From assembly GCA_964291295.2 (NCBI GenBank), contig OZ219754.1, forward strand, positions 2,912,001-2,976,000: 64,000 nt of DNA, written 5' to 3'. Shown in pieces: positions 142 through 55,829 of the stretch (its first letter is position 1; the number at the start of each line of letters is the position of its first letter). Origin of the DNA: an uncultured Candidatus Binatia bacterium (GTDB lineage: Bacteria > Desulfobacterota > Binatia > UBA9968 > JAJDTQ01). Position numbers and translations under genes: made by a program. The notes beneath the pieces are model-generated. The model searched no databases. It was given only the letters and a program-made list of their open reading frames with translations, and was not told where the DNA came from.

Positions 142-600
142 CTAGAGCTTGTCCAATTCGGCCAGCAGCTCCGAGTTGTCCGGGATACCGCCCTCGTAAA
201 TCCTGGAGTAGCGCACGCTCCCCTGCTTGTCGATGATGAAGACGGCCCTCTTGGGAAATCCCTGGGGGCGCAGGCAGTCGTACTGCTCGCAGACCGCCCC
301 ATGGGGAAAGAAGTCCGACAGCATCGGAAAGGTGATGCCGCCCATCTGCTCCGCGAACACCTTGTGTGCAAACACCGAATCCACACTCACGCTCAGAACC
401 TGAGCGTCTTTGGCTTCGAAGCTGGCCTTGTCAGCCTCGAAGTTGCTCAATTCCTGCTTTCAGCCGCCGGTGAAGTCCAGCGGATAGAACGCCAACACGA
501 CGTTCTTCCTGCCCGCATAATCGCTCAGGGACACCTTTTCGTCCCGGGACACCGGCAGGCTGAAGTCCGGGGCCTTTTCTCCCACTTCTGGCATTGCCAT
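142..600 (-). CDS. Selenocysteine-containing peroxiredoxin (AhpC/TSA family), 152 aa, Sec47
   Basis: ATG at 600 with SD AAAGGAG; reads [15 protein letters not shown]...[16 protein letters not shown](462..460)-KQELSNF and continues in frame into ORF 142..450; the TGA is at the peroxidatic Cys position of PxxxTxxC; conserved Arg in KRAVFIID. Confidence 0.9.
414..442 (-). promoter_or_regulatory. Putative bacterial SECIS hairpin
   Basis: mRNA CUUCGAGGCUG-ACAAGGC-CAGCUUCGAAG forms an 11-bp stem (one G-U) starting 17 nt after the UGA; flanking UGAGC/GCUCA can extend the stem. Confidence 0.7.
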
Positions 601-655
601 CAAACGATCTCCTTTCCAGGTTTCAGATTTTCCAACGCGTCACGGGGTACAGTGC

Positions 656-1219
656 CTAACATACTTTTCCCGCCTCATAAAGGCGTTCGAAGTCCCGCAG
701 CGCTTCCACCGTACTGGGAAAGGCGAGTTGGTCCCAAGGAATCAGCGCAAGCGGAAAGGCCTCCGCCTCGGTACTCTCGTCCCCGGCCGCGAGGGCTCCG
801 CCCACCACCTCCGCCCGGTAGACGATGATCACGTTGGGCGACCTCGGATACGAATAGACCCCCAGGAGCGAACGCGCCACCACCTCCAGATTGCTCTCCT
901 CCCGGGTTTCGCGGACCGCCGCCTCGGTAGTGCTCTCTCCCCGGTCCACGTAGCCGCCGGGAAAGACCCACTTCCCCATGGCCGGCTCGATGCCGCGGCG
1001 CACCAGCACCACGCCGCCCTCCAGCATGCAGATGGTGCCGGCCACCACCTTGGGGTCCTGGTAGAAGATGAAAGAACAGCACTCGCACACCAGCCGCCCG
1101 GGCTCATGGCTCTTGACCACCCGTTGCACCAGCAACCCGCCGCAACGGGGGCAGAAGCGGTAGCCGCCGCCCCCCGGCGCGTGGTGGTGCTGATGGTGGT
1201 GCTGATGGTGGGCTGCCAT
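656..1219 (-). CDS. NUDIX hydrolase with N-terminal His-rich tract and Zn ribbon
   Basis: HHQHHHQHHH, CPRCG...CECC, Nudix box GGYVDRGESTTEAAVRETREE; ATG overlaps the rluB stop. Confidence 0.9.
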   Translation of the reverse strand: MAAHHQHHHQHHHAPGGGGYRFCPRCGGLLVQRVVKSHEPGRLVCECCSFIFYQDPKVVAGTICMLEGGVVLVRRGIEPAMGKWVFPGGYVDRGESTTEAAVRETREESNLEVVARSLLGVYSYPRSPNVIIVYRAEVVGGALAAGDESTEAEAFPLALIPWDQLAFPSTVEALRDFERLYEAGKVC

Positions 1220-1971
1220 CAACCGCCCTGCTCCGCTGGGAGGTCCACCGTCCGTCTGAGCCGTGCCACCTCTCCCCGGGTCAAGGGGCGTATCTCACCC
1301 CGGCCCAGATGACCCAGGGCAATGGGGCCGAAGTGGCTTCTGACGAGCCGTTCCACAGTGTGGCCCACCGCTTCCACCATCCTGCGGACCTCCCGGTTCC
1401 GGCCTTCCCCCAGTTCGACCCGCAGCCACACCTTCTGCTTCAACCGCCGCAGGACCGCCACCTCCGCCGGCCGCGTCACCCCCTCCGGCAGCCTCACCCC
1501 CCGGCGCAGTCGATCCAGTTGCGCATCCGAGGGCATCCCGCTCAACTTGACCTCGTAGGTCTTGCGGACTCCGTAACGGGGATGGGTCAGGCGGTGGGCC
1601 ACGTCACCGTCGTTGGTCAGCAGCAACAGACCCGCCGTGGCGAAATCCAGCCGGCCCGCGGGAACGACACCCGGCGGATGATTCCCCGCGCGCAGGTAGT
1701 CGGCCACCGAGGGACGACCCTCCGTGTCCCGCATGGTGGTGATGACGCCGGTGGGCTTGTGGAACGCGAGATAGACCCGGGATGCCGCAGCCTGCACCAG
1801 CCGCCCGTTGACGCGAATGCTGTCCCGAGCGGCATCGGCGCGGCTCCCCAGTTCCTGGACGCGACGGCCGTTGACCGTCACGCGGCCCTGGACAATCCAG
1901 TGCTCCGCCTGGCGGCGCGAAGCCAGTCCGGCCTGGGCGATGATCCGTTGAAGGCGTTCGGTGTGCGTCAA
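1219..1971 (-). CDS. rluB: rRNA pseudouridine synthase RluB-like (S4 + RsuA domain)
   Basis: ERLQRIIAQAGLASRR S4 domain, GRLD catalytic motif, EGRNREVRRM; follows scpAB. Confidence 0.88.
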   Translation of the reverse strand: MTHTERLQRIIAQAGLASRRQAEHWIVQGRVTVNGRRVQELGSRADAARDSIRVNGRLVQAAASRVYLAFHKPTGVITTMRDTEGRPSVADYLRAGNHPPGVVPAGRLDFATAGLLLLTNDGDVAHRLTHPRYGVRKTYEVKLSGMPSDAQLDRLRRGVRLPEGVTRPAEVAVLRRLKQKVWLRVELGEGRNREVRRMVEAVGHTVERLVRSHFGPIALGHLGRGEIRPLTRGEVARLRRTVDLPAEQGG

Positions 1972-4635: not shown

Positions 4636-5553
4636 TCAACGCCTGTCACCGGGCGTCTCCCGTGGATGGAACTGCCGGTGGACCTGCTTGACGCGGCTTC
4701 GGCTCACGTGCGTGTAGATCTGGGTGGTGGCGATGTCGGCATGCCCCAGCATCGACTGAACCGCGCGCAGGTCCGCCCCTCCCTCCAGCAGGTGGGTGGC
4801 GAAGGAATGGCGCAGGGTGTGCGGCGTGACACGGTGCGGCAATCCGGCCCGGCGGGCGTATCCGCGCAACAGCTTCCAGAATCCCTGGCGCGTGAGCGGC
4901 CCGCCGGAACGCGTGAGGAACACATGATCGCTGTAACCGCGGGTCAGGAAGCGCGGGCGCACCTCCCGCAGATACCGCTGCAGCCGGTCCCGCGCCCAAC
5001 GGCCGAAGGGAACCAGCCGGACCTTGGCTCCCTTGCCCCGGACCGTCAGATAGTTGCCCTCCAGATCCACCTGCTGCAGCTTGAGGGACACCAGTTCCGA
5101 GACCCGCAGTCCGCTGCCGTACAGCAACTCCAGCATCGCGCGGTCCCGGGCCCCCAGCGGTTTCGCCTCGTCGGGTTGATCCAGCAGTACGCGCATCTCC
5201 TCGCTGCCGAGGGTCTCGGGCAGGCGGCCCGTGGTGCCCCGGACCGAAAACTCGGGCACCGGATCGCTCGCGATCATCTCCTCCTTGAGCAGGAAGCGAT
5301 AGAACCGGCGCATGCTGCCCAACAGGCGCACGACGGACCGTTCGCTCAGCCGTTGCGCCCGGAGATGGGAGATGTAGGCGCGCAGGTCCGACGCGGCGGC
5401 CTCGCCCCAGGCGCGGACCTCCCGGGCGGAAAGGAACTCGGCCAGCCGGTTCAGGTCACGGCTGTAGGCCTCCAGGGTGTTGGCCCGCAAACCGCGTTCG
5501 ACAACCAGCGTCTCAAGGAAGAGGTCAACCGGCCGCGTCATCTCGTCCGTCAT
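4636..5553 (-). CDS. xerD: Tyrosine recombinase XerD
   Basis: ERGLRANTLEAYSRDL, LYGSGLRVSEL, HTLRHSFATHLL, LGHADIATTQIYTHV, HPR terminus; start at 5553 or 5541. Confidence 0.92.
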   Translation of the reverse strand: MTDEMTRPVDLFLETLVVERGLRANTLEAYSRDLNRLAEFLSAREVRAWGEAAASDLRAYISHLRAQRLSERSVVRLLGSMRRFYRFLLKEEMIASDPVPEFSVRGTTGRLPETLGSEEMRVLLDQPDEAKPLGARDRAMLELLYGSGLRVSELVSLKLQQVDLEGNYLTVRGKGAKVRLVPFGRWARDRLQRYLREVRPRFLTRGYSDHVFLTRSGGPLTRQGFWKLLRGYARRAGLPHRVTPHTLRHSFATHLLEGGADLRAVQSMLGHADIATTQIYTHVSRSRVKQVHRQFHPRETPGDRR

Positions 5554-8206
5554 CTTTCGGCTCCAATTCGCGATGGAGGCCATCGCTCAAGGCCTTGAGG
5601 CGCCCGCTGTCGAATACCTTCCCGCCCTCCTCGTCGGCGACATAGAAGACGTCCGCCACCCGGTCGACGTCGGTGGATATCTTGGCCAGATGAATGGCGA
5701 AGCCCAGTCTCGAGAGCAGGTAGGTGATGGTGAAGAGAACCCCCGGCCGATCCTGGGCGTAGACCTCGACCACGGTGAAGTCATCCGACGCGGCATTGTC
5801 CCAGCGAACATGGACGGACGCCTTCGGTGCGGGCCTGCGCCACCACGAAGGCCGTGACCGACCCACCCGCTCGGCCACATCCACCTTGCCCTTCAGAACC
5901 TGTTCCAGCAAGAGCTCCATGCGCGACCACTTCCCCGCATTCATGACCACCTCGGCCCTGCCCTGATGCGAGATCCGGAAGACGTCGAGAATGAGTCCGT
6001 CCCCGCGGGTATTGATGCGCGCGCTCAGCACGTTGAGTTCCATGGCGGCGAAGACGCCGGCGATGGCGGCGAACAGGCCGGGTTGGTCGCGCGCGCAGAT
6101 GGCGACCTCGCTGTGACCATGCTCGGGACGATGGCGCACCGCCGCCAGAAACGGCTCGTCACGGAGACGCCGCAACAGGCAGTAATGAAGCGGCATGTCT
6201 TCCTCCGGGGTGGTGAGGAAGTAGCGTTTGGGCATGGCTTCGACAAAATCCCGCCGCACCTCGCCGGCGGGATGCGCCGCACCGAGCTGCGCCAGCAGCC
6301 TCTCCTGTATGCGGCGCACTTTCAGATCCTGGTCCGGCCTCGTGTACTCACCCTTTTCGCGCTCTTCCAGAACCTCCAGCGTATGGTTGAAGAGTTCTTC
6401 CAGCAACGACCCCTTCCAATTATTCCACACGTCGGGCCCTACCGCCTTCATGTCCGCGTAGGTCAGGACGTAGAGGGACTTGAGGTTTTCCGCCGTACCC
6501 ATGGTGCCGGCCAGGTCCAGCACGGTCTTTTCGTCCCGGATGTCGCGGCGAAAGGCCGTGCCGGTAAGCGACAGATGGTGGAGCACGAGAAAAGCCAGCC
6601 GTTCCCGCTCGTCGACGTTGAGGCCCATGCGCCCGGCCACCTGCAGCGCCAGGACACGTCCCAACTCCGAGTGGCCGCCGCCCTGACCCTTGCCGATGTC
6701 GTGGAAGAGGATGCCCAGGATCACGATCTCCGGCCGTTCCACCTCCCGGGCCAGCTGTGACAGACGCGGCAGCGAGTCCTCGAACTCTCCCGACCGCAGG
6801 CGCTCGAACTCCCTGACCGCCCGCATCAGATGCTGGTCCACCGTGTAGATGTGGTACAGATCGTGCAGCGCCATGCAGTGGACCCGGCCGAACTCCGGTA
6901 TCAGGGCGTCCAGCACCCCGGCGCGATGCATCTCCTGCAGGGTCTCGTATATCCATTGGTTGCCGCGCAGGATGTCGAGGAACCCGCGGTTGGCCGCGGC
7001 CGATTCCGCCAGGCTACCCGCCAGGGTCTCGACCCAGGATCGGACCACCTCCCGGGAGTCCTCCCCCAGGTGCAGCCGGTGCTCCTGCAGGTCGGCAAAG
7101 AGAGCCAGGAGTTCCTCGGGACGACCGCGCATGCCGGGGGCCACCGCCAGGGCCCGGCCGGTGATGCGCACGCCGGGGCGCCCGGGCCGGGGCCGGGAGG
7201 GATCATGCTCCACCGCGCGGTGGATGACCAGCGACGACAGCCGGCTGACCTCCTGCGCGTGCCGGTAATAGGCGCGCATGAAGGTCTCCACCTGGCTCAA
7301 CGGCCCCTCCGCGTCGAAACCCAGCCCCCGCGCCGCCTGCTCCTGGGACTCGAAGGTCAGCCGGTCCTGATGCCGGCCCGCCAGGAAATGGAGCTCGTTG
7401 CGCGTGCGCCAGAGAAAGTCCCGCCCCCGTTCCAGGGCCGCCGTGTCCCGGGGCTCCAGCAGCCCCGTCCGCGGCAGGTCCGGGAGTCGGACGGCGCCGC
7501 ACTTGGCCCGGGCGACCCACATGGCCGCATGGATGTCGCGGAGACCCCCCTGCCCCTCCTTGACATCGGGTTCCAGCAGGAAGACGGACTCGCCGTGGCG
7601 CCGGTGCCGCTGACCGCGTTCGCTGACCTTGGCCGCCACGAACCGGTCGCGGCCGCTTCCGCCCAGCTGCCGCCGCACCACCTGCTCCAGTTCCGCAAAC
7701 AACTCCCTGTCGCCGCAGAGGTAACGCGCGTCCATCAGGGCGGTGCGGACAACCGGGTCGCGCCGGGCGTGGCGCGCGCACTCCGGCACCGTGCGGGTGG
7801 CGTGGCCCACGGTCAGACCCGCGTCCCACAGCGGATAGAGCAGGCGCCGGGCGACGAGCTCCACATGAGAGGCGGCCCGCCTGCCGTAAAGGAACAGAAG
7901 GTCGATGTCCGACCAGGGATTGAGCTCCCCGCGTCCGTAGCCTCCCTGGGCCACCACCGCGCAGCGTCCCGGCGTTGGCCCGGCTTCTCGCTCCGCCGCC
8001 TCGAACAGGCACCGCAAGACGCTATCGATCATCCCGCCGTGCGCCCGCACCACCGCCGCTCCCGACGCTCCGGAGCGATGGGACTCCAGCAGCAGCCGGC
8101 GCCCTTGGTGGAGAAAGGCGCGGACACCCTCTGCCGGAGGCGCACCCCGGACCTGCGCGTCCGCGAACTCGCACCAGAGCGCGTCCCCTAGCGCGGTTCC
8201 TTGCAT
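5525..8206 (-). CDS. glnD: [Protein-PII] uridylyltransferase/uridylyl-removing enzyme
   Basis: GGYGRGELNPWSDIDLL nucleotidyltransferase motif, HIYTVDQH and LFHDIGKG HD domain, two C-terminal ACT domains. Confidence 0.94.
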   Translation of the reverse strand: MQGTALGDALWCEFADAQVRGAPPAEGVRAFLHQGRRLLLESHRSGASGAAVVRAHGGMIDSVLRCLFEAAEREAGPTPGRCAVVAQGGYGRGELNPWSDIDLLFLYGRRAASHVELVARRLLYPLWDAGLTVGHATRTVPECARHARRDPVVRTALMDARYLCGDRELFAELEQVVRRQLGGSGRDRFVAAKVSERGQRHRRHGESVFLLEPDVKEGQGGLRDIHAAMWVARAKCGAVRLPDLPRTGLLEPRDTAALERGRDFLWRTRNELHFLAGRHQDRLTFESQEQAARGLGFDAEGPLSQVETFMRAYYRHAQEVSRLSSLVIHRAVEHDPSRPRPGRPGVRITGRALAVAPGMRGRPEELLALFADLQEHRLHLGEDSREVVRSWVETLAGSLAESAAANRGFLDILRGNQWIYETLQEMHRAGVLDALIPEFGRVHCMALHDLYHIYTVDQHLMRAVREFERLRSGEFEDSLPRLSQLAREVERPEIVILGILFHDIGKGQGGGHSELGRVLALQVAGRMGLNVDERERLAFLVLHHLSLTGTAFRRDIRDEKTVLDLAGTMGTAENLKSLYVLTYADMKAVGPDVWNNWKGSLLEELFNHTLEVLEEREKGEYTRPDQDLKVRRIQERLLAQLGAAHPAGEVRRDFVEAMPKRYFLTTPEEDMPLHYCLLRRLRDEPFLAAVRHRPEHGHSEVAICARDQPGLFAAIAGVFAAMELNVLSARINTRGDGLILDVFRISHQGRAEVVMNAGKWSRMELLLEQVLKGKVDVAERVGRSRPSWWRRPAPKASVHVRWDNAASDDFTVVEVYAQDRPGVLFTITYLLSRLGFAIHLAKISTDVDRVADVFYVADEEGGKVFDSGRLKALSDGLHRELEPKDDGRDDAAG

Positions 8207-23561: not shown

Positions 23562-24929
23562 TCAGCCCGTCAGACGGCTCATGAGCCGACGCGCCCTTTC
23601 CACCGCGCCCGGCTCGATGGAAAGGGTCGCGGCGAAATCGCCCAGGGGCCGGGTGGCGTCGATGCCCATCTTCGCCGTAACGGCATCGGTGGCCGAGGGG
23701 TCCAGCAGCGTGCCCATGGCCTCGTCAACGATGAAAACGTCGCGGTCGGCCTGCATCCGGGTGGCCATGGCCCACAGCACCTGCTCTTCGTCGAATACAT
23801 CGATGTCCGCGTCCACCACCACCACCAGCTTGACGTAGTGGTCCGCCCCCAGCACGCTGAAGATGGCCTGCTTGGCCTGTCCTTCCGCGGTCTTTCTCAG
23901 GGAGACATAACAGTGGAAGCTGCCGATGCCCGACCGCACCGGCACGTGCACCGCCTTGAGATTGGGAATGGTCTTCCCCAGCACGTGGGTGAACTCCACT
24001 TCCCGGGGCATGGACAGGCAACGGCAGTGCTCCAGGCTGTCGCCGCCGTTGATATCCTGGTAGACGGCCCCGTTGCGGTAGTGCAACGCCGTGGCCTCGA
24101 ACACGTTCTCGGTGCTCCGGCTCGAGGCGTAGCCGGTGAACTCGCCGAACGGCCCCTCCTTCTCCCGCACGTCCTTGAGGATCCGCCCCTCGATGACGAC
24201 CTCCGACCACCGCGGCACGTCGACGTCCACGGTGGCACAGCGCGTCAACTCCAACGGTTCTCCCAGAAGCCCGCCCTGAAGCGCGAACTTCTCCGTTCCC
24301 GCCGGCGGCAGCGTCAATGCCCCCAGTGAGACCAGCGGGTGCACACCGATGCAGACCGCGGCCTCCAGGGACTCCCCCTTCTCCTCGGCGCGCCGGAAGT
24401 ACTCGAACATGCGCCGCCGGGAATGGAGGCTGACCCCCAGCTTGCGCGGCCCCTTGAGCTGCATTCGATGGAACCCCACCGTACGCATGCCGGACTGTGG
24501 ATCCCGCGCCACCACCAGCCCGGCGGTCACATAGGGGCCGCCGTCCTGCTCGAAATGGGTCAGCACCGGGAGTCGTCCCAAGTCCACCGATTCACCCAGC
24601 AGGGTGTTTTCCTGGAACGGGGCGTCTTTCAACACCGCGGGCCGCATGGGCTGCTGGATCCGCTCCCTGAACTCGTTCACCAGCCCTTCCTCCGGCGTGC
24701 CGAAGATCCAGGCCAGTCGCGGGCGGTGCGCCAGCACGTTGGCCGCCACGGTGAAGTCACTCCCGGTGATGTTCCGGAATATCACCACCGGACAGGACGG
24801 CAGCCGTTCAGCCTCCATCACCAGAGCAGTGGCCTCGAACTCCCGGGACACCGGCTCCCCGACTTCGAGCCACTGCTCCGGACACGCTTCCTTCAATCGC
24901 TTCAGGAAACCCTGCAGATCCTGTGGCAC
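23562..24929 (-). CDS. UbiD family prFMN-dependent (de)carboxylase
   Basis: GFHRMQ, EGPFGEFTGY, VVVDADIDVFD, WAMATR, KMGIDAT. Confidence 0.93.
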   Translation of the reverse strand: MPQDLQGFLKRLKEACPEQWLEVGEPVSREFEATALVMEAERLPSCPVVIFRNITGSDFTVAANVLAHRPRLAWIFGTPEEGLVNEFRERIQQPMRPAVLKDAPFQENTLLGESVDLGRLPVLTHFEQDGGPYVTAGLVVARDPQSGMRTVGFHRMQLKGPRKLGVSLHSRRRMFEYFRRAEEKGESLEAAVCIGVHPLVSLGALTLPPAGTEKFALQGGLLGEPLELTRCATVDVDVPRWSEVVIEGRILKDVREKEGPFGEFTGYASSRSTENVFEATALHYRNGAVYQDINGGDSLEHCRCLSMPREVEFTHVLGKTIPNLKAVHVPVRSGIGSFHCYVSLRKTAEGQAKQAIFSVLGADHYVKLVVVVDADIDVFDEEQVLWAMATRMQADRDVFIVDEAMGTLLDPSATDAVTAKMGIDATRPLGDFAATLSIEPGAVERARRLMSRLTG

Positions 24930-28164: not shown

Positions 28165-28854
28165 TCAGTCCATGCCCACCAGCCCCACGCCCAGCGCCCG
28201 CCCCACCGCTTCGAGGGCGGCCTCGTTGCTGGTCACGATGGGCAGGTCGTAGGCATCCTTCAGGCGCGGCAGCGCCGCCACCGCCTGATAGTTGGTGCAA
28301 GAGATGAACAGTGCATCCACCGGCGGTCTGGCGCCCAGCTTCTCGCGGGCGAAGGCCAGTATCTCCGGCGGTTCCACCAGCGCCAACTCGAAGTTGACGC
28401 GGATGCCCATGCCGTGGATCGCCACCACTTCGATGCCGCCCTCCTCCACGCTGGCCTTGATACGGCTGTTCAACTCCTCGACATAGGGCGTCACCACGGC
28501 CACACGCCGGACCTTCAGCGACGCCAGCCGGCGCCGCACCGACTCGATGACACTGAGGGTGGGTTTGCCGGCAACTTCCGAGATCCGGCGGCACAACTCG
28601 GCATCGCCGGCGTTGCCCCGGAGCGCGCCGGCGCTGGTGCAGCCGAACACCATCAAGTCCGGGCGGGCCGTGGCCACGTCGGCGGCCGCGGACAGGCAGT
28701 GATCGTCGAGCATGGCCTCCTCGCCCCGGACCGTGGTGGCCTCCATGTACATGCGGCCCGTATGGACCGTGACCGACGCCGGCAGGTGACGGTAGAAGTC
28801 CACTTCCATGACGGTGTTCGACGAAGGGATGAGCAATCCGATCCGATGACCCAA
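28165..28854 (-). CDS. Asp/Glu racemase family (maleate isomerase/arylmalonate decarboxylase-like)
   Basis: IGLLIPSSNTVME, GCTS, TPY, SCTN, TSN. Confidence 0.87.
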   Translation of the reverse strand: MGHRIGLLIPSSNTVMEVDFYRHLPASVTVHTGRMYMEATTVRGEEAMLDDHCLSAAADVATARPDLMVFGCTSAGALRGNAGDAELCRRISEVAGKPTLSVIESVRRRLASLKVRRVAVVTPYVEELNSRIKASVEEGGIEVVAIHGMGIRVNFELALVEPPEILAFAREKLGARPPVDALFISCTNYQAVAALPRLKDAYDLPIVTSNEAALEAVGRALGVGLVGMD

Positions 28855-28887: not shown

Positions 28888-29901
28888 TCAGTCGTCATCG
28901 AACTCGCCCCGGGCCCTGGCCTCCTGGATGGCGAAGAAGACCCGCTCCGGGGTGATGGGCGTCTCGGTGATGCGGATGCCGATGGCGTCGTCGATGGCGT
29001 TCAGAATGGCCGGGGTGGTGGGGATCGTGGCGGGCTCGGCGACCCCCTTGGCGCCGAACGGCCCCCGGGGGTCCGGCACCTCCACGATCTCGCACTCGAT
29101 GTCCGGCACGTCCATGGCGGTGGGTACCAGATAGAACGCCAGCGACGACGTGCGCGGCACGCCGTTCTCCAGGATATGCTGCTCGTAGAGACCGTAGCCC
29201 AGGCCCATGGCGGCGCCGCCCTCGATCTGTCCTTCCACCGCCGCCGGGTTGATGGCCTTGCCCGCGTCCGTGGCCGAAACCAGCCTGACCAGACGCACGC
29301 GCCCGGTCTCGGTATCCACCTCCACCTCCGCCAACTGGGTTGCCCAGCCGTAGGTGGCGTAAGCGTCGCCCTGGGAAGTCTCCGGATCCACGTCGGCGGT
29401 GGTGTTGTCGTGCCAGCCCCAGGCCGCCGACCGCCGGCCGTGGAAATGGAGCTGCTGGGCCACCTTGCCCACCGACACCATGGGGCGGTCGCTGCCGACC
29501 TCGCACACCTCGCCGCGGCTCACGTGAAGGTTCTCCCTGGGACACTCCAGCATGCGCGAGGCCATGTCCAGGAGCTGCGCGCGCAGTTCCCCGGCCGCCC
29601 GCTGTACCGCCACCCCCTGCACGAAGGTGGCGCGGCTGCCCGAGGTGGGCCCGGCGTCCGGCGTGCTGCCGGTATCCGCCGCCACCACGCGAATCTGCTC
29701 CGGCTCGATGCCAAGCTCCTCCGCCGCCACCTGGGTCACCACGGTCATGACCCCCTGGCCCATGTCACAGGCCCCGGAGTAGATGGTGGTGGTGCCGTCC
29801 TCGGCCATCTCGATCTCGGCCGAGCCGATGTCGGCCCGGCTGAAGCCGTAGCCGATACCGTAATACATGGAGCCGATGCCCAGGCCTCTTCTTGTCGCCA
29901 T
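28888..29901 (-). CDS. Molybdenum hydroxylase Moco-binding medium subunit (NdhM-like)
   Basis: DMGQG, TSGSR, EGQIEGG, GAKGVAEP (catalytic Glu). Confidence 0.9.
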   Translation of the reverse strand: MATRRGLGIGSMYYGIGYGFSRADIGSAEIEMAEDGTTTIYSGACDMGQGVMTVVTQVAAEELGIEPEQIRVVAADTGSTPDAGPTSGSRATFVQGVAVQRAAGELRAQLLDMASRMLECPRENLHVSRGEVCEVGSDRPMVSVGKVAQQLHFHGRRSAAWGWHDNTTADVDPETSQGDAYATYGWATQLAEVEVDTETGRVRLVRLVSATDAGKAINPAAVEGQIEGGAAMGLGYGLYEQHILENGVPRTSSLAFYLVPTAMDVPDIECEIVEVPDPRGPFGAKGVAEPATIPTTPAILNAIDDAIGIRITETPITPERVFFAIQEARARGEFDDD

Positions 29902-29920
29902 GATCGCCCGGCCGCGCCCT

Positions 29921-31234
29921 TCAGGAGGCGGCCCGAGCCCGCCTGAACCGCAGGTCATGTGCGTCCATGTAGTCCTCGATGCGCCGCAGCGTCGCTTCGA
30001 TGCCGCAGCCTTCGTTCATCAACTGTCCGGTGGAGGAAGCCAGCCCCGGCCTGAGGCAGTTCTTCAAGCGGAACTCCAGCGGCGACATGCCCAGCCGGTG
30101 GGCCAGCTGGTCCATCTGGGACTCGTGGGCCACGGCCGCCTGCATCACCCCGAAGCCGCGCATGGCCCCGGAGACCAGATTGTTGGTGTAGAGCGTATAG
30201 GTGTCCACCCGGATGTTCGGCACTTCGTAGGGACCGGTGGCGTGGATGCCCGCCTTCTTGACCACGTAGGCGCCCAGCGAAACCCCCGCGCCCGTGTCGC
30301 CGTAGATGTCGCCGTCCAGGAAGGCCAGCCGGCCGTCGGCGCGGGCGCCGGTGCGGAAGTTCATGGCCATGGGGTGGCGCTTGGTGTTGGCGACGAGGGA
30401 CTCCTCGCGGCTGTAGACCAGGCGCACCGGCCGGTGCGTCCTGAGCGCCAGCAGGCCGGCGTGGATCTCCACGGTGATGTCGTCCTTGCGGCCGAAGCCG
30501 CCGCCGATGGGTGCCTGGATCACCCGGACCCTGTTCATGGCAAGGCCCAGGGCCGGCGCGATCTGGCGGCGGTCCCGGTACGGGTACTGGGTGCCCGCCA
30601 GGATGTGCAGCACGCCGGAGGGATCCACATGGGCCAGTCCCGCCTCCGGCTCCATGGGAACGTGATCCATGCGATGGGTGTGGTAGGTGTTCTCCACGAC
30701 CACGTCCGCCTCCCGCATGCCCCGCTCCAGATCACCCTTGCGCACGGTGGTGTGCTGGAACACGTTGCCGCCCTCGTGGATCGAAGGCGCCGTCCGGTCC
30801 AGGGCATCCGCGTAGGTGAGAATCGGCCGCAGCGGCTCCAGGTCCACCTTGATCTTCGCCAGCGCCTCCTCGGCCGCTTCTTCGTCCTCCGCCGCCACCA
30901 GGGCCAGGGCATCGCCCGCCGACCGCACCTTGTCGTCCGCCAGCACCTGCTGGTCGAGCACGGCCAGTCCGTAGCGGTTGGTGCCGGGCACGTCCGCGGC
31001 CGTGAGCACGGCGGCCACACCGGGCGTCCGGGCGGCCTCCCTGGTGTCGATGTGGCGGATCACCGCGTGGGGCGTACCCGCCCACAGGATCCGGGCGTGG
31101 AGCATGCCCGGCACCACCATGTCGCCCACGTACTCGGTGGCGCCCAACGCCTTCTCCAGCGCGTCGGGCCTGGTGACGTTCCTGCCGATCCAGTGATGCG
31201 GGCGGTCCGCCGCCCCGGAAGTCCCCTGGCTCAT
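29921..31234 (-). CDS. Molybdenum hydroxylase Moco-binding large subunit (NdhL-like)
   Basis: TQYP, GGGFGRK, KRHP, GAMRGFG; start MSQGT at 31234. Confidence 0.9.
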   Translation of the reverse strand: MSQGTSGAADRPHHWIGRNVTRPDALEKALGATEYVGDMVVPGMLHARILWAGTPHAVIRHIDTREAARTPGVAAVLTAADVPGTNRYGLAVLDQQVLADDKVRSAGDALALVAAEDEEAAEEALAKIKVDLEPLRPILTYADALDRTAPSIHEGGNVFQHTTVRKGDLERGMREADVVVENTYHTHRMDHVPMEPEAGLAHVDPSGVLHILAGTQYPYRDRRQIAPALGLAMNRVRVIQAPIGGGFGRKDDITVEIHAGLLALRTHRPVRLVYSREESLVANTKRHPMAMNFRTGARADGRLAFLDGDIYGDTGAGVSLGAYVVKKAGIHATGPYEVPNIRVDTYTLYTNNLVSGAMRGFGVMQAAVAHESQMDQLAHRLGMSPLEFRLKNCLRPGLASSTGQLMNEGCGIEATLRRIEDYMDAHDLRFRRARAAS

Positions 31235-31710
31235 CTCCCCTCGCTCGTGATCTCTTCGGCGGCCGCGCGCACGGCCTTGACGATCTTGCCGTATCCCGTG
31301 CAACGGCATAGGTTCCCGGAGATGGCGAAACGGATCTCGTCGTCCGTGGGGTCGGGGTTGTCGCGCAGCAGCGCCCAGGCGCTCATGATCATCCCCGGCG
31401 TGCAGTAACCGCACTGTATGCCGCCCTGCGCCACCATCTGCCGCTGCAAGGGATGGGGCCGGCCCTCTTCGGCCAAGGCTTCGATGGTCACCACCTCCCG
31501 GTCCACCGCGTCGGGAAACAGCACCAGGCAGGACACCACCGGCCGGCCGTCGAGGAGAACCGTGCACGACCCGCACTCGGCCTCGTTGCAGCCCTTCTTG
31601 CTGCCGGTCAGACGAAGGTTGTCGCGCAGTACGTCCAGCAGGGACTGATGGGGTTCGGCTTCGGTTTCCCGGACGCCGCCGTTCACCCGCAGACGGTAGC
31701 GCCGCTTCAT
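31231..31710 (-). CDS. Molybdenum hydroxylase 2Fe-2S subunit
   Basis: GCNEAECGSCTV, QCGYCTPG, GNLCRCTGY. Confidence 0.95.
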   Translation of the reverse strand: MKRRYRLRVNGGVRETEAEPHQSLLDVLRDNLRLTGSKKGCNEAECGSCTVLLDGRPVVSCLVLFPDAVDREVVTIEALAEEGRPHPLQRQMVAQGGIQCGYCTPGMIMSAWALLRDNPDPTDDEIRFAISGNLCRCTGYGKIVKAVRAAAEEITSEGR

Positions 31711-32600
31711 GCCGTCGCCGCCCGCCCGTCCGCCCGGGCCCTTTCCACCGCCTGTCGCAGCACGCGCCGCACCAGTATCCGCGCCAGCTCCCTGCGGTAG
31801 GCCGCCGACCCGCGAATGTCATCGATGGGGCAACACGCTTCCATCGCCGCGGTCCCGGCCCACTCCAGGCGTTCCGGGCTCGGCTCCCTGTCCAGCACCA
31901 GCTCCTCCGCCTTCAGAGCCCGAATGGGCGTGGGCGCCACCGCGCCCAGGGCGATGCGCACCGCCCTCACCCTTTCCCGGGCCGAATCCAGCGTCACGGA
32001 GGCGGCGGCGCTGGCTATGGCGATGTCCATGGCCGACCGCGGCGTGAACCGCTCGAAGGCATCGCCGGTGAACGGTTCCGGTTCCGGCACCTCCACCGCC
32101 AGGAGCAACCCGCCGGCACCCAGCACCGACGCCCCCGGACCTTGAAAAAAGTTCTCCACCGATACGGTCTCCCGTCGGGATTCATGGCCCCACAGGGTTA
32201 TCGTGGCCCCCAGCGCCATGAGCGGCGGCGCCGTATCCGCCGACGGCGAAGCATTGCACAGGTTGCCGCCGACGCTGGCCATGTTCCTCAACTGCGGCGA
32301 ACCCACCACCCGGAGCGCCTCGCGGATCGAGGGAAAGCGCCGGCCCACGGCCGCGGACGTTTCCAGATCCCGCATGGGCGTGCAGGCCCTCACCTGGAGC
32401 CCCTTGCCGGGCGCGCATTCCCAGCCCGAAAGCCCCGGTATCCGTTTCAGATTCACCAGCCCCTCGGCGCGGACCACCCGACGGCGCAACTGTATGACGA
32501 TATCCGTACCGCCGGCAAGCGCCCGGCGCGCGCCTTTTCCCTCCCGCAACAACTCGCTCGCTTCCCGCAGGGAGGTGGGCTCGAAATAGTCAAAGCGCAT
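31707..32600 (-). CDS. Molybdenum hydroxylase FAD-binding subunit
   Basis: YFEPTSL, AGGTD, RNMASVGGNLCNASPSAD, PIDDIRGSAAYR. Confidence 0.94.
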   Translation of the reverse strand: MRFDYFEPTSLREASELLREGKGARRALAGGTDIVIQLRRRVVRAEGLVNLKRIPGLSGWECAPGKGLQVRACTPMRDLETSAAVGRRFPSIREALRVVGSPQLRNMASVGGNLCNASPSADTAPPLMALGATITLWGHESRRETVSVENFFQGPGASVLGAGGLLLAVEVPEPEPFTGDAFERFTPRSAMDIAIASAAASVTLDSARERVRAVRIALGAVAPTPIRALKAEELVLDREPSPERLEWAGTAAMEACCPIDDIRGSAAYRRELARILVRRVLRQAVERARADGRAATA

Positions 32601-39239: not shown

Positions 39240-40679
39240 TCAACCCGCGCCGTTGCCGTTGAACAGTACCTTGCCCCACTTCCTGGCCGTGGCGTCGAGC
39301 ACCTCCGGACTGGACTCCGCCACCGGCGGGAACTCGCTCATCCACTCGTAGGGACGGCACGCGTCGATGATGGCGCGGGAGTTGAAGCCCTTCTTCGTGG
39401 GGTGCACGATGGGGTCGAGGGGGCCGCTCCAGGCGCGCCGGATGATGTCGATGTCGCCATCCGGATCAGAGCGCGTCGCCAGGGCCCAGATCACGTCATC
39501 GGTGTTGGAGGGGTCAATGTCGTCGTCCACGACAATGACGTAGCGGCCGAGGTAGGCGCCCGCGTGGCACTGGGAAGCCACCACCGCGGCCTGGCGCGCG
39601 TGTCCCGGGTAGCGCTGCTTGATGGAGACCACCATGACCAGACGGCTGCCGCCAGCCACCATCAGCCAGACACCCCTGACATCGGGAACGCCGGCTTTCT
39701 CCATCTCGTCCCAGATGAGCGCCGAACGCAGGTACGACCGGTACCAGCCGAGCTCGGCCGGCGGCCTTCCCGGAGGCGAGCCGAGGATGATGGGGTCGTT
39801 CCGATGGTACAGGCGCTTGATCTTCACGATGGGCTCGTTCCGCTCCGCGCTGGCATAGTAGCCGGTCCACTCGCCGAACGGGCCCTCGACACGATCCTCG
39901 CCGAAGATCACGTCGCCCTCCACCACGATCTCGGCATTGGCCGGAACCATCAACCCGGAGTACGGCGCCTTGACCACCTCCAGGGGCTCTCCGCGAATAC
40001 CCCCCAGGAAGTCGTACTCGGGCACGCCGTAGGGCACCTCGATGCTTCCGCCCAGGAAGACCAGCGGGTCATGCCCGAAGGACATGGCCATCTTGAAGGA
40101 CTCGCCGGTCTGCTGGTACTTGTCCCGGTGGATCCGGCCGTGCTTGCCCGGAGAGATGTAGAAGCCCACGGTGTCGGAATCGTGGACCATGACCCGATAC
40201 GTGCCCCAGTTGGTCCAGCCTTCGTCCCGGTCCGCGGTGATGTCGATGCTGCCGGTGCCGATGTAGCGGCCGCCGTCCCGCTCGTGCCAGCGGGGCGTGG
40301 GGAACTTGAGCAGATCAATGTCGCCCTCTTCGAAAACGTTCTCGAACAGCGGGCCGTCCTTCAGCACCTTGGCGGGGACAGGCTTGATCTTCCTGTAATG
40401 CTCGCGCCACGTGTTGACGAACTCCATCTTGCTGTCGCCCGGGGGCAGGTTCAGAGTCAAGCCGATACGCTTCCGCGAACTCAGCGAGTTGGACAGGACG
40501 CGGTAGCCCTTGGGGTGGTCCTTGATCTCGTCGAACAGCACCGCGGGGCCGTCTTCCCTGCGCATCACCATCTCGGTAATGGCGCCGATCTCAAGATCCC
40601 AGTCGCAGCCCCTCAGGGTCTTGAGCTCCCCCATCGCATTCGCCTTGTCGATCCACTCGCGGCAATCATTGAATTCCAT
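39240..40679 (-). CDS. UbiD family prFMN-dependent (de)carboxylase
   Basis: DGGRYIGTG, WGTYR, EGPFGEWTGYY, VDDDIDP, WALATR. Confidence 0.93.
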   Translation of the reverse strand: MEFNDCREWIDKANAMGELKTLRGCDWDLEIGAITEMVMRREDGPAVLFDEIKDHPKGYRVLSNSLSSRKRIGLTLNLPPGDSKMEFVNTWREHYRKIKPVPAKVLKDGPLFENVFEEGDIDLLKFPTPRWHERDGGRYIGTGSIDITADRDEGWTNWGTYRVMVHDSDTVGFYISPGKHGRIHRDKYQQTGESFKMAMSFGHDPLVFLGGSIEVPYGVPEYDFLGGIRGEPLEVVKAPYSGLMVPANAEIVVEGDVIFGEDRVEGPFGEWTGYYASAERNEPIVKIKRLYHRNDPIILGSPPGRPPAELGWYRSYLRSALIWDEMEKAGVPDVRGVWLMVAGGSRLVMVVSIKQRYPGHARQAAVVASQCHAGAYLGRYVIVVDDDIDPSNTDDVIWALATRSDPDGDIDIIRRAWSGPLDPIVHPTKKGFNSRAIIDACRPYEWMSEFPPVAESSPEVLDATARKWGKVLFNGNGAG

Positions 40680-40728
40680 CGTTACCTCCGCTCGGTATGC
40701 ATTCCATCTGCCGTGCTTTCGGGACGTG

Positions 40729-41118
40729 TCAGGTCTTCTGGTACATGCCTCGCCCCATGCGCCTGATCCGGCCATCCTTGGACCACCGTACCACTACCTG
40801 CCGGAGATAGGCCCTGGGCTTCTCGCTCGCCGTCTTGTTGGCGCCCACGGTGTCGAGAGTGAACTCCTTCGGCAAGGTGTCGAAAATCGCGTTCCAGTCG
40901 ATCATGGCGCCGCGAGGCCCCCGTCTCTGCACCTGTCCGGAGCGGGCGGGCCGGCCGCGCCGGCGGCGCGGTTCTCGACCTCCATCCAGCATGTCGTAGA
41001 TGATCTCATGCCGCTTGATATCGTCCCGGAGCGTGGCCACCCGCGCGGTGGCCGCCGCCAGTTCCTTCTTCAACAGATCGATCTGCTGCCTGACACTTAC
41101 CTTCAGAGCCAAGGCCAT
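40729..41118 (-). CDS. Small basic putative DNA-binding protein (coiled coil + AT-hook + winged-helix-like C-terminus)
   Basis: Strong SD AAGGAGG; heptad N-terminus; RRRRGRPAR; C-terminal GRIRRMGRGMY. Confidence 0.7.
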   Translation of the reverse strand: MALALKVSVRQQIDLLKKELAAATARVATLRDDIKRHEIIYDMLDGGREPRRRRGRPARSGQVQRRGPRGAMIDWNAIFDTLPKEFTLDTVGANKTASEKPRAYLRQVVVRWSKDGRIRRMGRGMYQKT

Positions 41119-52079: not shown

Positions 52080-53153
52080 GTGCCGAAGATCACCCACATC
52101 GAAGCGCGCGCCCTGAACGCGCCCCTCAAGGCTCCCTTCACCATTGCCGGAGCGCGGCTGGACGCGGTGCGCAACGTCGCCGTGCGGCTTGACCTGGCCG
52201 GTGGCGCCAGCGGCTGGGGGGAGATCCCGATCCTGCCGGCGGTGACGCCGGAAGACCAGCCCGCCGCCTTGGCCGCGTCCCGGCGGGCGGCGCAGGCATG
52301 GACCGGCCGGGACGCCCTGCGCTGGCGGCCGCTGCTGAAGGAGCTCTGCCGCCTGCTTCCGGACACGCCGACGGTCAGGGCCGGCATGGAGATGGCGCTG
52401 TTCGACGCCCTGGCGCGCCAATGGAACATTCCCCTCTTCGCATTCTTTGGCGGCGCCGCCGATCACGTCGTCACCGACATCACCATCCCCATGTGCGGGC
52501 CGGAAGAAGCCCGCAGGCTTGCGGCCGCGTACCGCGGGCTCGGATTCACCACCCTGAAAACCAAGGTCGGAGCCGATCCGGACGCCGACATCGAACGCGT
52601 CGCGGCCATCCGCGCAGGTCACCCGACCAGCGACCTCATCCTCGACGCCAACGGCGGCTACAACGTGACCCGGACCCTGGCGGTGCTGCGGACCCTTCGC
52701 CGCAAGGGACTGGAACCGGCCCTGCTGGAGCAGCCGGTGCCGCGGGAGGACCGGGACGGCCAGGCCCGCCTGGTGCGCGAAGCCGGCGTTCCGGTGGCCG
52801 CGGACGAATCCTGCCGCTCGTCCGAGGACGCCGCCGGCATCGCCCGGGATCGCCTGGCTCACGTGATCAACATCAAGCTGGCCAAGTGCGGCGTGGCCCA
52901 GGCCCTGGAGATCATCGCCATCGCCCGGGCGGCGGGCCTCGGACTCATGATCGGCGGCATGGTGGAGACGCGGCTGGCCATGGGCTTCAGCGCGCACCTG
53001 GCGGCGGGCACCGGCGCCTTCCGGTGGATCGACCTCGACACCCCCATGCTGCTGGCCGAGGATCCGGTGCGCCACGGCTACACGGTCGACGGACCGCGCT
53101 ACCAGCTCGGCCACATCACCGCCGGCCACGGCAGCGAGCCGACAGGATGGTAG
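52080..53153 (+). CDS. Dipeptide (L-Ala-D/L-Glu) epimerase, enolase superfamily
   Basis: KTKVG, DANGG, EQP, ADES, NIKLAKCG, DLD. Confidence 0.88.
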   Translation: MPKITHIEARALNAPLKAPFTIAGARLDAVRNVAVRLDLAGGASGWGEIPILPAVTPEDQPAALAASRRAAQAWTGRDALRWRPLLKELCRLLPDTPTVRAGMEMALFDALARQWNIPLFAFFGGAADHVVTDITIPMCGPEEARRLAAAYRGLGFTTLKTKVGADPDADIERVAAIRAGHPTSDLILDANGGYNVTRTLAVLRTLRRKGLEPALLEQPVPREDRDGQARLVREAGVPVAADESCRSSEDAAGIARDRLAHVINIKLAKCGVAQALEIIAIARAAGLGLMIGGMVETRLAMGFSAHLAAGTGAFRWIDLDTPMLLAEDPVRHGYTVDGPRYQLGHITAGHGSEPTGW

Positions 53154-53245
53154 AACCGCCCCGGTGATGGCGACGCCCTGGAGACGGCGGCGGTGTGCCG
53201 GCACGTTCTGACCGGCCCGCAACCGCAGAGTGACAGGGAGCGCGC

Positions 53246-54196
53246 TCAAGTGCCGGAACGGGTCACGCCGAGGCTTCGGAGCCGGGCCATGAGAAGCTCC
53301 GGCGCCATGGGCCGGCGCAGGAGTTCCCGCACGCCCTCGCCGGCCTCGCCAGGCTCGGCTGCCCGGGCCAGGAGGGTCGCCAGCGGCACCTCCGTCCGCG
53401 CCCATTGCCGCACGGGATAGAGCGCATCAATGGCCGCGACCCGCAGATCATACGGTTCTCTGAATGCGGCGGTGGCGGCGATGAACGCCCGGACCGTTTC
53501 GGCAAGCGCGTCTTCCCCGGGCGATCCCTCTCCGACGCCATGCCGGATCGCGGTCGAGGAGTGGTCCCTGAGCCCGGCGGCGAGCGCCAGCGGTTGAACC
53601 CGGTCCCGGTAAGGGGCGTTCCCGGGGCGCTCCAGCAACGCATACAATTCGCCGGCGCCCCACTCCCCCCGGTTGGCGGCCACCAGCCTTGCCTGGGCGA
53701 ACAGCCCATCCAGTGCCCGGTCGCGGTCGTCGTAGTATTTCCCATCGAAAATCTGGAGCACCTTGTCCATGCCCACGATGACCCAGAGTTCCGCCGCCCG
53801 GCCGAAGCTCGCCCGGAACGCCGGCGCCTGCTCGGAGTAGAGGCCGCGGTTCACCACCGCCACCGCGGCCCATGGGTGGGCGCACGCGAGCAGCGACAGC
53901 AGCAGCAGGCGGTCCTCGCGGCACAGGCCTTCCACCCGCTCCTTGTCGACGATGACGCTGCTCAGGGAGTAGACGACATGATCCAGATCGAAACGGCGCC
54001 GGGCGGCGCCGGCGAGATCGGTATGGGCAAGGGTGGGCGGATTGAAGGAGCCCGGAAGGATGCCGACCCGGCCACCTTCGATACGGTGCGGGCCGGCCAC
54101 CAGGACGGCGGCCGGCACCGGAGCAGCCTCAACGGCCGCCAGCGCCTCGCGGAAGCCGAAGAGGCGCCCGAGGTCGTGAAAGTCCTGCTGCGACAA
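53246..54196 (-). CDS. Nicotinate/nicotinamide-nucleotide adenylyltransferase-like protein
   Basis: GSFNPPTLAH, VGMDK, SSTAIR. Confidence 0.75.
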   Translation of the reverse strand: MSQQDFHDLGRLFGFREALAAVEAAPVPAAVLVAGPHRIEGGRVGILPGSFNPPTLAHTDLAGAARRRFDLDHVVYSLSSVIVDKERVEGLCREDRLLLLSLLACAHPWAAVAVVNRGLYSEQAPAFRASFGRAAELWVIVGMDKVLQIFDGKYYDDRDRALDGLFAQARLVAANRGEWGAGELYALLERPGNAPYRDRVQPLALAAGLRDHSSTAIRHGVGEGSPGEDALAETVRAFIAATAAFREPYDLRVAAIDALYPVRQWARTEVPLATLLARAAEPGEAGEGVRELLRRPMAPELLMARLRSLGVTRSGT

Positions 54197-54202
54197 GCTC
54201 TC

Positions 54203-54349
54203 CTATTTCCAGATTGCGGGACTGTCTTCCTCGGGGAAACAGGCATCGCAGAAGGGGCAGTGAAACTCCATGCCCGAGCCCAGCATGTGTGGGTTCACCA
54301 CGAACTTTCCATTGCATTTCGGACACGTCACCTCGACAGCCTGACCCAT
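54203..54349 (-). CDS. 48-aa Zn-ribbon protein
   Basis: SD AAAGGAG; CPKC...CPFC; lies between UbiD and the NadD-like gene. Confidence 0.75.
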   Translation of the reverse strand: MGQAVEVTCPKCNGKFVVNPHMLGSGMEFHCPFCDACFPEEDSPAIWK

Positions 54350-54383
54350 GAAGGTCTCCTTTCCGCCGGTTCTGCTCGAACGC

Positions 54384-55829
54384 CTACGACCAGTAGGTCG
54401 TCCGATCAATGGGGATGTGCGAAAGGATCTCGCCGGGAATGAAATCCTCGACCTTGATCCGGCTCATGGCCTCGTCCGGAACCTTGGACACCGGCGAGAA
54501 CGGCCGGTCCAGCGGACGCGTGGCGTCGACGATCATCCCTGAGGTCTTGATCTCGTCCACCAGGGACGGATCCAGGAAGTTGCCGCGGAAGAGCGGTTTC
54601 AGGATCGACACCTGGCGGTGGGGCTGCACGCGCGTGGCCAGGGCCCACAGGATGTCCGTGGGATCGTACACGTTGATGTCCTCGTCGAAGACGAAGACGT
54701 TCTTGGTGTGGTCGAAGGTCAGGGCCGCGGCCGCCGCCCGTCCCGGATCGCCTTCCGACAGCTTGTTCATGGAGATGAAGACGTTGTAGTGGGCATGCCG
54801 GCCCATCTTGCAGACCGCTCGCACCCCGGGCACGGCCTCGCGGCAGCGGCGCAGATAGGCGCCCTCGCGCGGCAGATCCATCCACGGCTTGTCGCCCTCG
54901 GGCGTGATGATGGACTGGAACATGGCACCCCGGCGCCAGCTCATGGCGGTAACCTTGTACTCCACGCAGGTGGTGTAGCGCTGCGGCCCGAGATAGCCCG
55001 GGGCCTCGCCGAAGGGACCTTCCACCACCCGCTTGTTGGGTTGAAGCAGTCCCTCGATGACCACCTCCGCGTCCGCCGGGATCAGGAAGTTGTCGCCCCA
55101 GGTGGAGGACGGCGTGAGCCGCAGCGGCTCCTGCATGTAACCGCCGATGATGTCGAACTCGCTCACCTCGAACGGGCCGCTGTAGCACGCGCCCATGTGG
55201 TAGGTCGGGTGGTGCCCCAGCACCGTGGCCACGGGACACTCCATGTTGTTGTCCTCGTAGTCCTTGAATATCTTCCACAGGTGGCGCGGCGAGGCGTACA
55301 GCGCCGTGCTCCGGGGCGACTTGACCTCCATCCGGTGGTACGAGCAGTTGTAGATGCCGGACTGCCGCTCCTTTGTGATGGTGGACATGACGATGTAGGG
55401 ACCGCCGTCCATGTAGTGATGACGCATCACCGGGATCTGGTAGATGTCCACGTCCTTGCCGGTCTGCACGTTCTGCATGACCGGTGCCTGGTCGCGCTCG
55501 ATGACGACCGGCTCCAGACGGTGCTCCTCGCGTTCCAGGCAGACGTCGGTCATGGCCTCCCGGCTCGTGTCCCGGTCCAGACCGAGAGCCACCTGGGTCT
55601 TGCCCTGGGAGATCTCGCAGTTCATGGTCAGCTTGATGTCCGACGGTTGACCGTGGAGGTTCAACGGGTTGTCGAAGACCAGGATCGGGAACTTCCGCTG
55701 TTCGTCAAGGTGCTTGATGAGCGCGCTCACGTCGTAGTGAGCCGGATCCACCTGCTTGGTCACGTGGACCACCTCGTTGGGGATCTCCCGCCGGCAGTCT
55801 TCCAGAAACGATCCCAGGCTCTTGGGCAT
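54384..55829 (-). CDS. UbiD family prFMN-dependent (de)carboxylase
   Basis: DGGPYI, SYHRME, EGPFGEAPGY, DEDINVYD, WALATR. Confidence 0.92.
   Translation of the reverse strand: MPKSLGSFLEDCRREIPNEVVHVTKQVDPAHYDVSALIKHLDEQRKFPILVFDNPLNLHGQPSDIKLTMNCEISQGKTQVALGLDRDTSREAMTDVCLEREEHRLEPVVIERDQAPVMQNVQTGKDVDIYQIPVMRHHYMDGGPYIVMSTITKERQSGIYNCSYHRMEVKSPRSTALYASPRHLWKIFKDYEDNNMECPVATVLGHHPTYHMGACYSGPFEVSEFDIIGGYMQEPLRLTPSSTWGDNFLIPADAEVVIEGLLQPNKRVVEGPFGEAPGYLGPQRYTTCVEYKVTAMSWRRGAMFQSIITPEGDKPWMDLPREGAYLRRCREAVPGVRAVCKMGRHAHYNVFISMNKLSEGDPGRAAAAALTFDHTKNVFVFDEDINVYDPTDILWALATRVQPHRQVSILKPLFRGNFLDPSLVDEIKTSGMIVDATRPLDRPFSPVSKVPDEAMSRIKVEDFIPGEILSHIPIDRTTYWS

Follow-up and report, generated by a model that had tools for sequence, protein, structure and literature searches.

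The window analysed here, a stretch of 64,000 nucleotides (64 kb) of Candidatus Binatia DNA, carries close to its first letter a gene for an AhpE-type peroxiredoxin (Prx) on the minus strand (142..600). When TGA is translated as selenocysteine (Sec, U), the gene is one frame of 152 codons followed by a TAG stop, and its sole interruption is the TGA at 462-460, codon 47. Translation table 11 gives two ORFs in the Prx frame and no others, one of 47 residues (460..603) and one of 102 residues that begins at a TTG (142..450). The truncated 102-residue ORF had been pointed out by an earlier reading of the letters alone (the sequence-only reading), which placed the true start at an ATG at position 600 behind a Shine-Dalgarno sequence. 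This is borne out: a Shine-Dalgarno-like AAGGAG (609..614, minus strand) stands 8 nt before the ATG at 600-598, a purine-rich GGAG-type box occurs at the equivalent place in all six related loci inspected, and the alignment of the loci has MAMP as the protein start in the relatives too. No match to a sigma-70-type promoter was seen in positions 1-2200 of the window. Two same-strand genes, for a pseudouridine synthase and a Nudix hydrolase, precede the Prx gene across a gap of 55 nt, and the order is identical in L001, one of the related loci described below. The Nudix hydrolase immediately upstream (656-1222, minus strand) is rich in His at its N-terminus (MMAAHHQHHHQHHH...) and carries a zinc-ribbon motif, and its orthologue in L001 has a Pfam Zn_ribbon_Nudix match.

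The rest of the window holds housekeeping genes and genes for catabolism of the aromatic and purine type (trpS, glnD, mutS, mutL, rpsA, relA, aroA, UbiD paralogues and an XDH-like enzyme). The three UbiD-family decarboxylase paralogues (23562-24929, 39240-40775 and 54384-55829, all minus strand) have near them an arylmalonate-decarboxylase-like gene (28168-28854), a TctA transporter (57161-58759) and a mandelate-racemase-like gene (52080-53150), and together these suggest an aromatic-acid catabolic neighbourhood. Two minus-strand ORFs that overlap in different frames (28888-29955 and 29921-31819) share the XDH-like molybdopterin large subunit between them, the N-terminal part covering model positions 1-400 and the C-terminal part positions 430-760 or so; either the subunit is split by nature, or a frameshift or an error of assembly has broken it. 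A tyrosine recombinase of the XerC/D-like kind (Phage_integrase plus a SAM-like N-domain; 4639-5583, minus strand) adjoins scpA/scpB and trpS. The stretch of about 1.2 kb at 53200-54440 has long ORFs on both strands, with no Pfam match.

With Cys substituted for U, the Prx protein matches Pfam AhpC-TSA (PF00578) over residues 6-131 at 7.4e-38 (129.7 bits against a cut-off of 26), a match that spans the TGA, and Pfam Redoxin at 2.9e-18. Among solved structures the nearest are chains of Mycobacterium tuberculosis AhpE (8.5e-30 to 1.2e-28), and the next family follows at 4e-23. The top seven PDB sequences are AhpE-type; six are Rv2238c/MT2298 and the seventh, 4xih, is labelled only “AhpC/TSA family protein”. 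The protein thus appears to belong to an AhpE-like branch, closer to AhpE than to Prx1, BCP or Tpx, as judged by PDB matches and not by a curated AhpE profile. Residues 1-138 align with AhpE (Rv2238c; PDB 1XVW, 1XXU, 4X0X and 5ID2; E-value 8.5e-30), which is of the same length class and shares the FTGxC context and the active-site Arg. The differences are that AhpE has Cys in place of Sec, and S and V in place of C104 and C109 of the window protein. AhpE works by a 1-Cys, mycoredoxin-dependent mechanism.

The active-site motif is present in full. Codon 47 sits in the context P40-x3-T44-x2-U47, and R118 (codon at 247..249, minus strand), the conserved active-site Arg of peroxiredoxins, is Arg in all 120 of the best relatives (of 1139). 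In the alignment with AhpE, U47 falls on the catalytic Cys of FTGIC and R118 on the Arg of ...ANRGTFVVD. The UGA codon (460..462, minus strand) is therefore in frame exactly at the peroxidatic Cys of PxxxTxxC, as the sequence-only reading had it, and the Cys/Sec pairing that it proposed to look for in AhpC/TSA homologues is there, with U47 opposite the Cys of AhpE and opposite Cys in 47 of the 120 best relatives of 1139. We predict that the codon is read as Sec.

The wider setting is the Sec-peroxiredoxin family (PF00578, TxxU), with which the window protein shares the AhpC/TSA fold, a peroxidatic Sec position in PxxxTxxU, and an in-frame UGA followed by a hairpin inside the coding sequence. 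A Sec-containing peroxiredoxin was reportedly first shown in Eubacterium acidaminophilum, by Sohling and colleagues in 2001. Sec-peroxiredoxins are listed among the bacterial selenoprotein families in two papers (PMC1794560, PMC13188914). Of the NCBIfam models, that of the selenoprotein PrxU (NF040737) comes nearest, yet the score of 83.9 bits is below the cut-off of 270 and places the protein outside the PrxU equivalog. It differs from PrxU in length too (152 residues against a model of 233 positions), and represents a short AhpE-like branch whose hosts are uncultured Candidatus Binatia.

Searching public genome contigs with the Prx yielded 40 loci (L001-L040). Thirty-eight are Binatia-type, being on contigs titled Candidatus Binatia or on MAGs titled Deltaproteobacteria, Syntrophobacterales or Thermodesulfobacteriota, and their proteins are 71-89% identical to that of the window. 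The remaining two are L039, from a Sphingomonadaceae MAG (44% identity, FTGGU context), and L040, a BCP-type protein with Cys. TGA occupies codon 47 in the window, in all 38 Binatia-type loci and in L039, that is, in 39/39 loci with the FTGG context; DNA identity to the window among these TGA-bearing loci is 65-89%. The sequence-only reading had itself named the result that would count against it, close relatives with TGC or TGT and no conserved hairpin; what we found is that every one of the 38 Binatia-type loci retains both the TGA and the hairpin. In an alignment of 39 Binatia-type sequences (the 38 loci and the window), which was also used for codon conservation, codon positions 1/2/3 have mean entropies of 0.29/0.20/1.04 bits before the TGA and 0.29/0.24/0.91 bits after it. 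Low entropy at positions 1 and 2 with high entropy at position 3 on both sides indicates that the two halves are under protein-level selection in a single frame. The UGA is the only break in the gene, and it is conserved throughout a clade of Candidatus Binatia genomes, as are both coding flanks and the two hairpins described next.

The first hairpin (414..442, minus strand; hairpin 1), our candidate SECIS element, has a stem of 10-11 bp, a loop of 7-9 nt and a distance of 27-28 nt from UGA to loop. The sequence-only reading described an 11-bp stem-loop starting 17 nt past the UGA, and this is what the window contains: an 11-bp stem that begins after a 17-nt spacer and closes on the 7-nt loop ACAAGGC, which starts 28 nt after the UGA. 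Folded by itself, the hairpin has an energy of -16.5 kcal/mol (z = -4.6; 1 of 200 shuffles equally stable). The fold of the 400-460 region that had been proposed as a check came out less clearly, the 81-nt stretch standing out only slightly against its shuffles (z = -2.1; 6 of 200). An RNAalifold consensus of 35 sequences gives two hairpins, the first with 10 pairs and a 9-nt loop that has an invariant G in first place and begins 27 nt after the UGA; the loop sequence is otherwise variable among the relatives. Across the alignment 97.4% of the cells of hairpin 1 are paired. Five of its pairs vary on one side only, each time to another standard pair such as G-U, and one pair is changed on both sides, in five sequences. 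For the two-hairpin structure, pairing drops from 98.5% to 17.5-42.3% when the 3′ partner is slid by 1-3 columns, a control that favours structures derived from the same sequences. Covariation over the whole structure is weak, its score being reached by 8 of 500 shuffles and the count of doubly changed pairs by 482 of 500.

The published bSECIS model calls for a loop of 3-9 nt, a stem of 4-16 bp, a G in loop position 1 or 2, a distance of 16-37 nt from the UGA and a minimum free energy of at most -7.5 kcal/mol (PMC13188914). By these rules the consensus form of hairpin 1 conforms (10-bp stem, 9-nt loop, G first, 27 nt, -16.5 kcal/mol), while the window's own 11-bp form fails the G rule, ACAAGGC having no G in its first two loop positions. 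The protein sequence may bear the mark of the structure. The 5′ arm of hairpin 1 is made by codons 54-55, which read [F/L]E in 16 of the 17 Sec-type proteins that cover them against 1 of 47 Cys-type proteins, most of which have Y-x; the amino acid sequence seems to have been bent to form the stem. In L039, a single sequence whose fold was read by eye, a hairpin stands at the position equivalent to hairpin 1, with its loop 23 nt after the UGA, and the downstream region as a whole folds no better than shuffles (z = +0.59).

The second hairpin (389..407, minus strand; hairpin 2) had escaped the sequence-only reading. It has the form ACGCUCAG-GUN-CUGAGCGU, a perfect 8-bp stem around a loop that starts with G-U (loop type CAGGUNCUG) and lies 60 nt from the UGA. 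Across all 39 Binatia-type sequences, the window included, it is invariant save for the loop N and one C/U position, where the variant, found in 2 of the 39, retains a G-U pair. In codons 65-67 and 70 no position varies among the 39/39 sequences (zero entropy, third positions included), against a gene-wide mean of 0.94 bits at third positions. We considered whether the hairpin is a repeated genomic element and rejected the idea, as the motif occurs once per locus in 38/38 Binatia-type loci and once in the window. The plus-strand copy at 389-407 scores as terminator-like (the stem and then CTTTGGCTTC); such a terminator would be antisense inside the Prx gene, and the score is probably meaningless. 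In L039 an equivalent of hairpin 2 was not seen in the corresponding region of that one sequence, again with the fold read by eye.

The loop of hairpin 2 fits the bSECIS pattern N1-G-[G|U]-N-N2, and the hairpin obeys all the rules of the model save that of spacing (60 nt against 16-37 nt). The closest likeness is to the SECIS element of Escherichia coli fdhF (L042), also a hairpin inside the ORF after the UGA with G-U in its loop; the apex is CA-GGUC-UG in fdhF (CAGGUCUG) and CA-GGUNC-UG in hairpin 2. The two differ in that the fdhF loop starts 18 nt after the UGA and the loop of hairpin 2 after 60 nt, a stretch that takes in another hairpin of 29 nt, and in that the 8-bp stem of hairpin 2 is perfect, in contrast to that of the fdhF SECIS. 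In the latter a bulged U has a role.

The proposal that the stem-loop after the UGA is a SECIS element therefore stands in part: the hairpin is conserved and its consensus form fits the bSECIS model, but it may not be the whole SECIS or the part that binds SelB, as an invariant hairpin 2 follows it. On balance, hairpin 1 seems to us the likelier SECIS, whether alone or as one member of a tandem element. A bolder scheme, which we consider doubtful, is that hairpin 2 is the SelB-binding site, brought into range by hairpin 1 acting as a structured spacer; this would make a tandem-hairpin class of bSECIS lying outside the 16-37 nt range, coupled to a Sec...CxxxxC mechanism that is undescribed for AhpE-type enzymes.

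We conclude that the product of the gene at 142-600 on the minus strand is an AhpE-type peroxiredoxin of 152 residues with Sec at the peroxidatic position, specified by the UGA at 462-460, and we put the probability of this at about 0.87. The stop codon by itself, and nothing more, might suggest a nonsense mutation, a pseudogene or a sequencing error in one genome. This is already refuted by the recurrence of the TGA on 39 separate public contigs (38 Binatia-type loci and the Sphingomonadaceae locus L039) and by the purifying selection on both sides of it, and we give it practically no credence. A split gene, in which translation truly ends at the UGA and two separate products arise, an N-terminal peptide of 46 residues and a C-terminal protein of about 100, is what the gene callers report. 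In a protein search, from which the best 120 of 1139 relatives with E ≤ 0.001 were compared, 68 of the 120 begin past the Sec site and are fragments of 83-105 residues (72-88% identity over the part covered). Their predicted starts, however, are scattered over query residues 51, 58, 68, 69 and 71, and codon 51, the TTG start of the 102-residue ORF in the window, is TTG in 19, CTG in 10 and CTA in 7 of the 39 aligned sequences; being CTG or CTA, which are not starts, in 17/39, it provides no conserved start for a second half. The second piece would moreover be without the entire PxxxTxxC active site, and the Pfam domain runs unbroken over the TGA. We regard separate products as highly improbable. 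The fragments are better explained by a catalytic residue encoded by a stop codon, on account of which gene callers cut the gene short. That annotation pipelines would truncate the gene had been foreseen; they do so in the 68 relatives above, and a further 5 of the 120 best relatives (of 1139) run the full length and show W in its place (P0003-P0006 and P0060). The W in these five records points to short contigs translated with a table in which TGA is Trp. Cys is at the site in the remaining 47 (of the best 120 of 1139), at 44-54% identity, and among the matches listed all relatives above 54% identity are without a Cys codon there. P0060 stands somewhat apart, with a TPVW context and neither C104 nor C109, and looks like a second, independent Sec-type lineage among AhpE-like proteins.

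The alternative that comes nearest to competing, though we still think it quite unlikely, is read-through without selenium, in which a near-cognate or suppressor tRNA decodes the UGA as Cys, Trp or another residue, the hairpins merely slow termination, and the product is an ordinary thiol peroxiredoxin or an inactive one. In its favour, no Sec machinery was seen in the window or the loci as scanned. ARAGORN found no tRNA gene in the 64-kb window or in the 40 loci, Rfam at the gathering threshold gave no match over the whole window, and the SelA, SelB and SelD families were absent from the window ORFs scanned with NCBIfam (41) and Pfam (66) and from the 13 ORFs of L001 scanned, 9 of them in its flanks. 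The NCBIfam set was made up of 39 of 49 ORFs picked by codon-position GC and two added ones, leaving out the Prx fragment and nine ORFs that resemble antisense shadows; the Pfam follow-up took 61 gap ORFs of at least 90 residues in all frames and 5 ORFs with no NCBIfam match. The absence of Sec genes from the window is weak evidence, since 64 kb is about 1.5% of the related chromosomes of 4-5.7 Mb. The W in the JGI records might also be cited in favour of read-through, but it reflects no more than the table with which those contigs were translated. Against read-through, TGA serves as a genuine stop more often than any other codon in the window, ending 23 of the 32 genes that have family matches, which also rules out a reassignment of TGA in the genetic code. 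A scan for in-frame TGA junctions with coding-like flanks (codon-position GC, or GC3, filter at a relaxed threshold) found 15 in the window, all of which were tested with Pfam; in one of the 15, that of the Prx, a domain lies across the junction, and the other 14 are ordinary gene ends. With TGA as the usual stop and a domain spanning the Prx junction alone, we read this as the standard code with site-specific recoding. Furthermore, the catalytic codon is TGA and not TGC or TGT in 39/39 loci, which is hard to explain if Cys is meant. The position of the UGA, the Cys-containing homologues and the model-conforming hairpin make up the standard signature of a bacterial selenoprotein (PMC13188914). 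We infer that Sec is the residue inserted. The wider suggestion that the organism uses selenium would follow from this, the Prx gene being the single pointer to it in the DNA analysed.

The Sec-type proteins have two further features in common that could bear on catalysis. Codons 104-109 (274..291, minus strand) read C-E-Q-Y-D-C, and in the comparison of the 120 best relatives of 1139 the two Cys are specific to the Sec lineage: of 73 Sec-type proteins, 67 have C104 and 70 have C109, whereas among 47 Cys-type proteins C104 occurs in 2 and C109 in none. They may be a pair of resolving cysteines, a pattern that is confounded with common descent. We suggest the following course for the gene and its product. 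A ribosome that reaches the UGA would not terminate; the downstream mRNA structure, which could be hairpin 1 (442-414), hairpin 2 (407-389) or both in tandem, would recruit SelB·GTP·Sec-tRNA(Sec), and Sec would be inserted. By analogy with the chemistry of the family, the selenolate of U47, held in the PxxxTxxU pocket with Arg118, would attack the peroxide and become a selenenic acid. More speculatively, this would probably be resolved by Cys109, by Cys104 or by an external thiol and then re-reduced.

Sec-peroxiredoxins are textbook bacterial selenoproteins and the scientific gain is accordingly modest. The kind has been known since 2001; what is new is the AhpE-like branch, the host range in Binatia and the unusually rigid second hairpin. 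Our literature search found no paper whose main text brings Binatia or Binatota into connection with selenocysteine or selenoproteins (of two matches, the one inspected has the term in its reference list alone), and nothing relevant on AhpE with selenocysteine among papers judged mostly by title and the start of the abstract; nor did it turn up biochemical work on the protein. The genome list of the BSepDB survey includes 11 Desulfobacterota_B/Binatia genomes, among them the genome behind L032.

In the records examined, the whole clade carries a mis-annotated antioxidant enzyme, either as a fragment of 83-105 residues (two NCBI records name it “redoxin domain-containing protein”) or with Trp at the active site. 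With the annotation corrected, Candidatus Binatia (Desulfobacterota_B) would join the lineages that bear selenoproteins. The conserved pair of hairpins is a feature that merits specialist attention and, if the distal hairpin is functional, the models used to search for SECIS elements would need a wider spacing rule.
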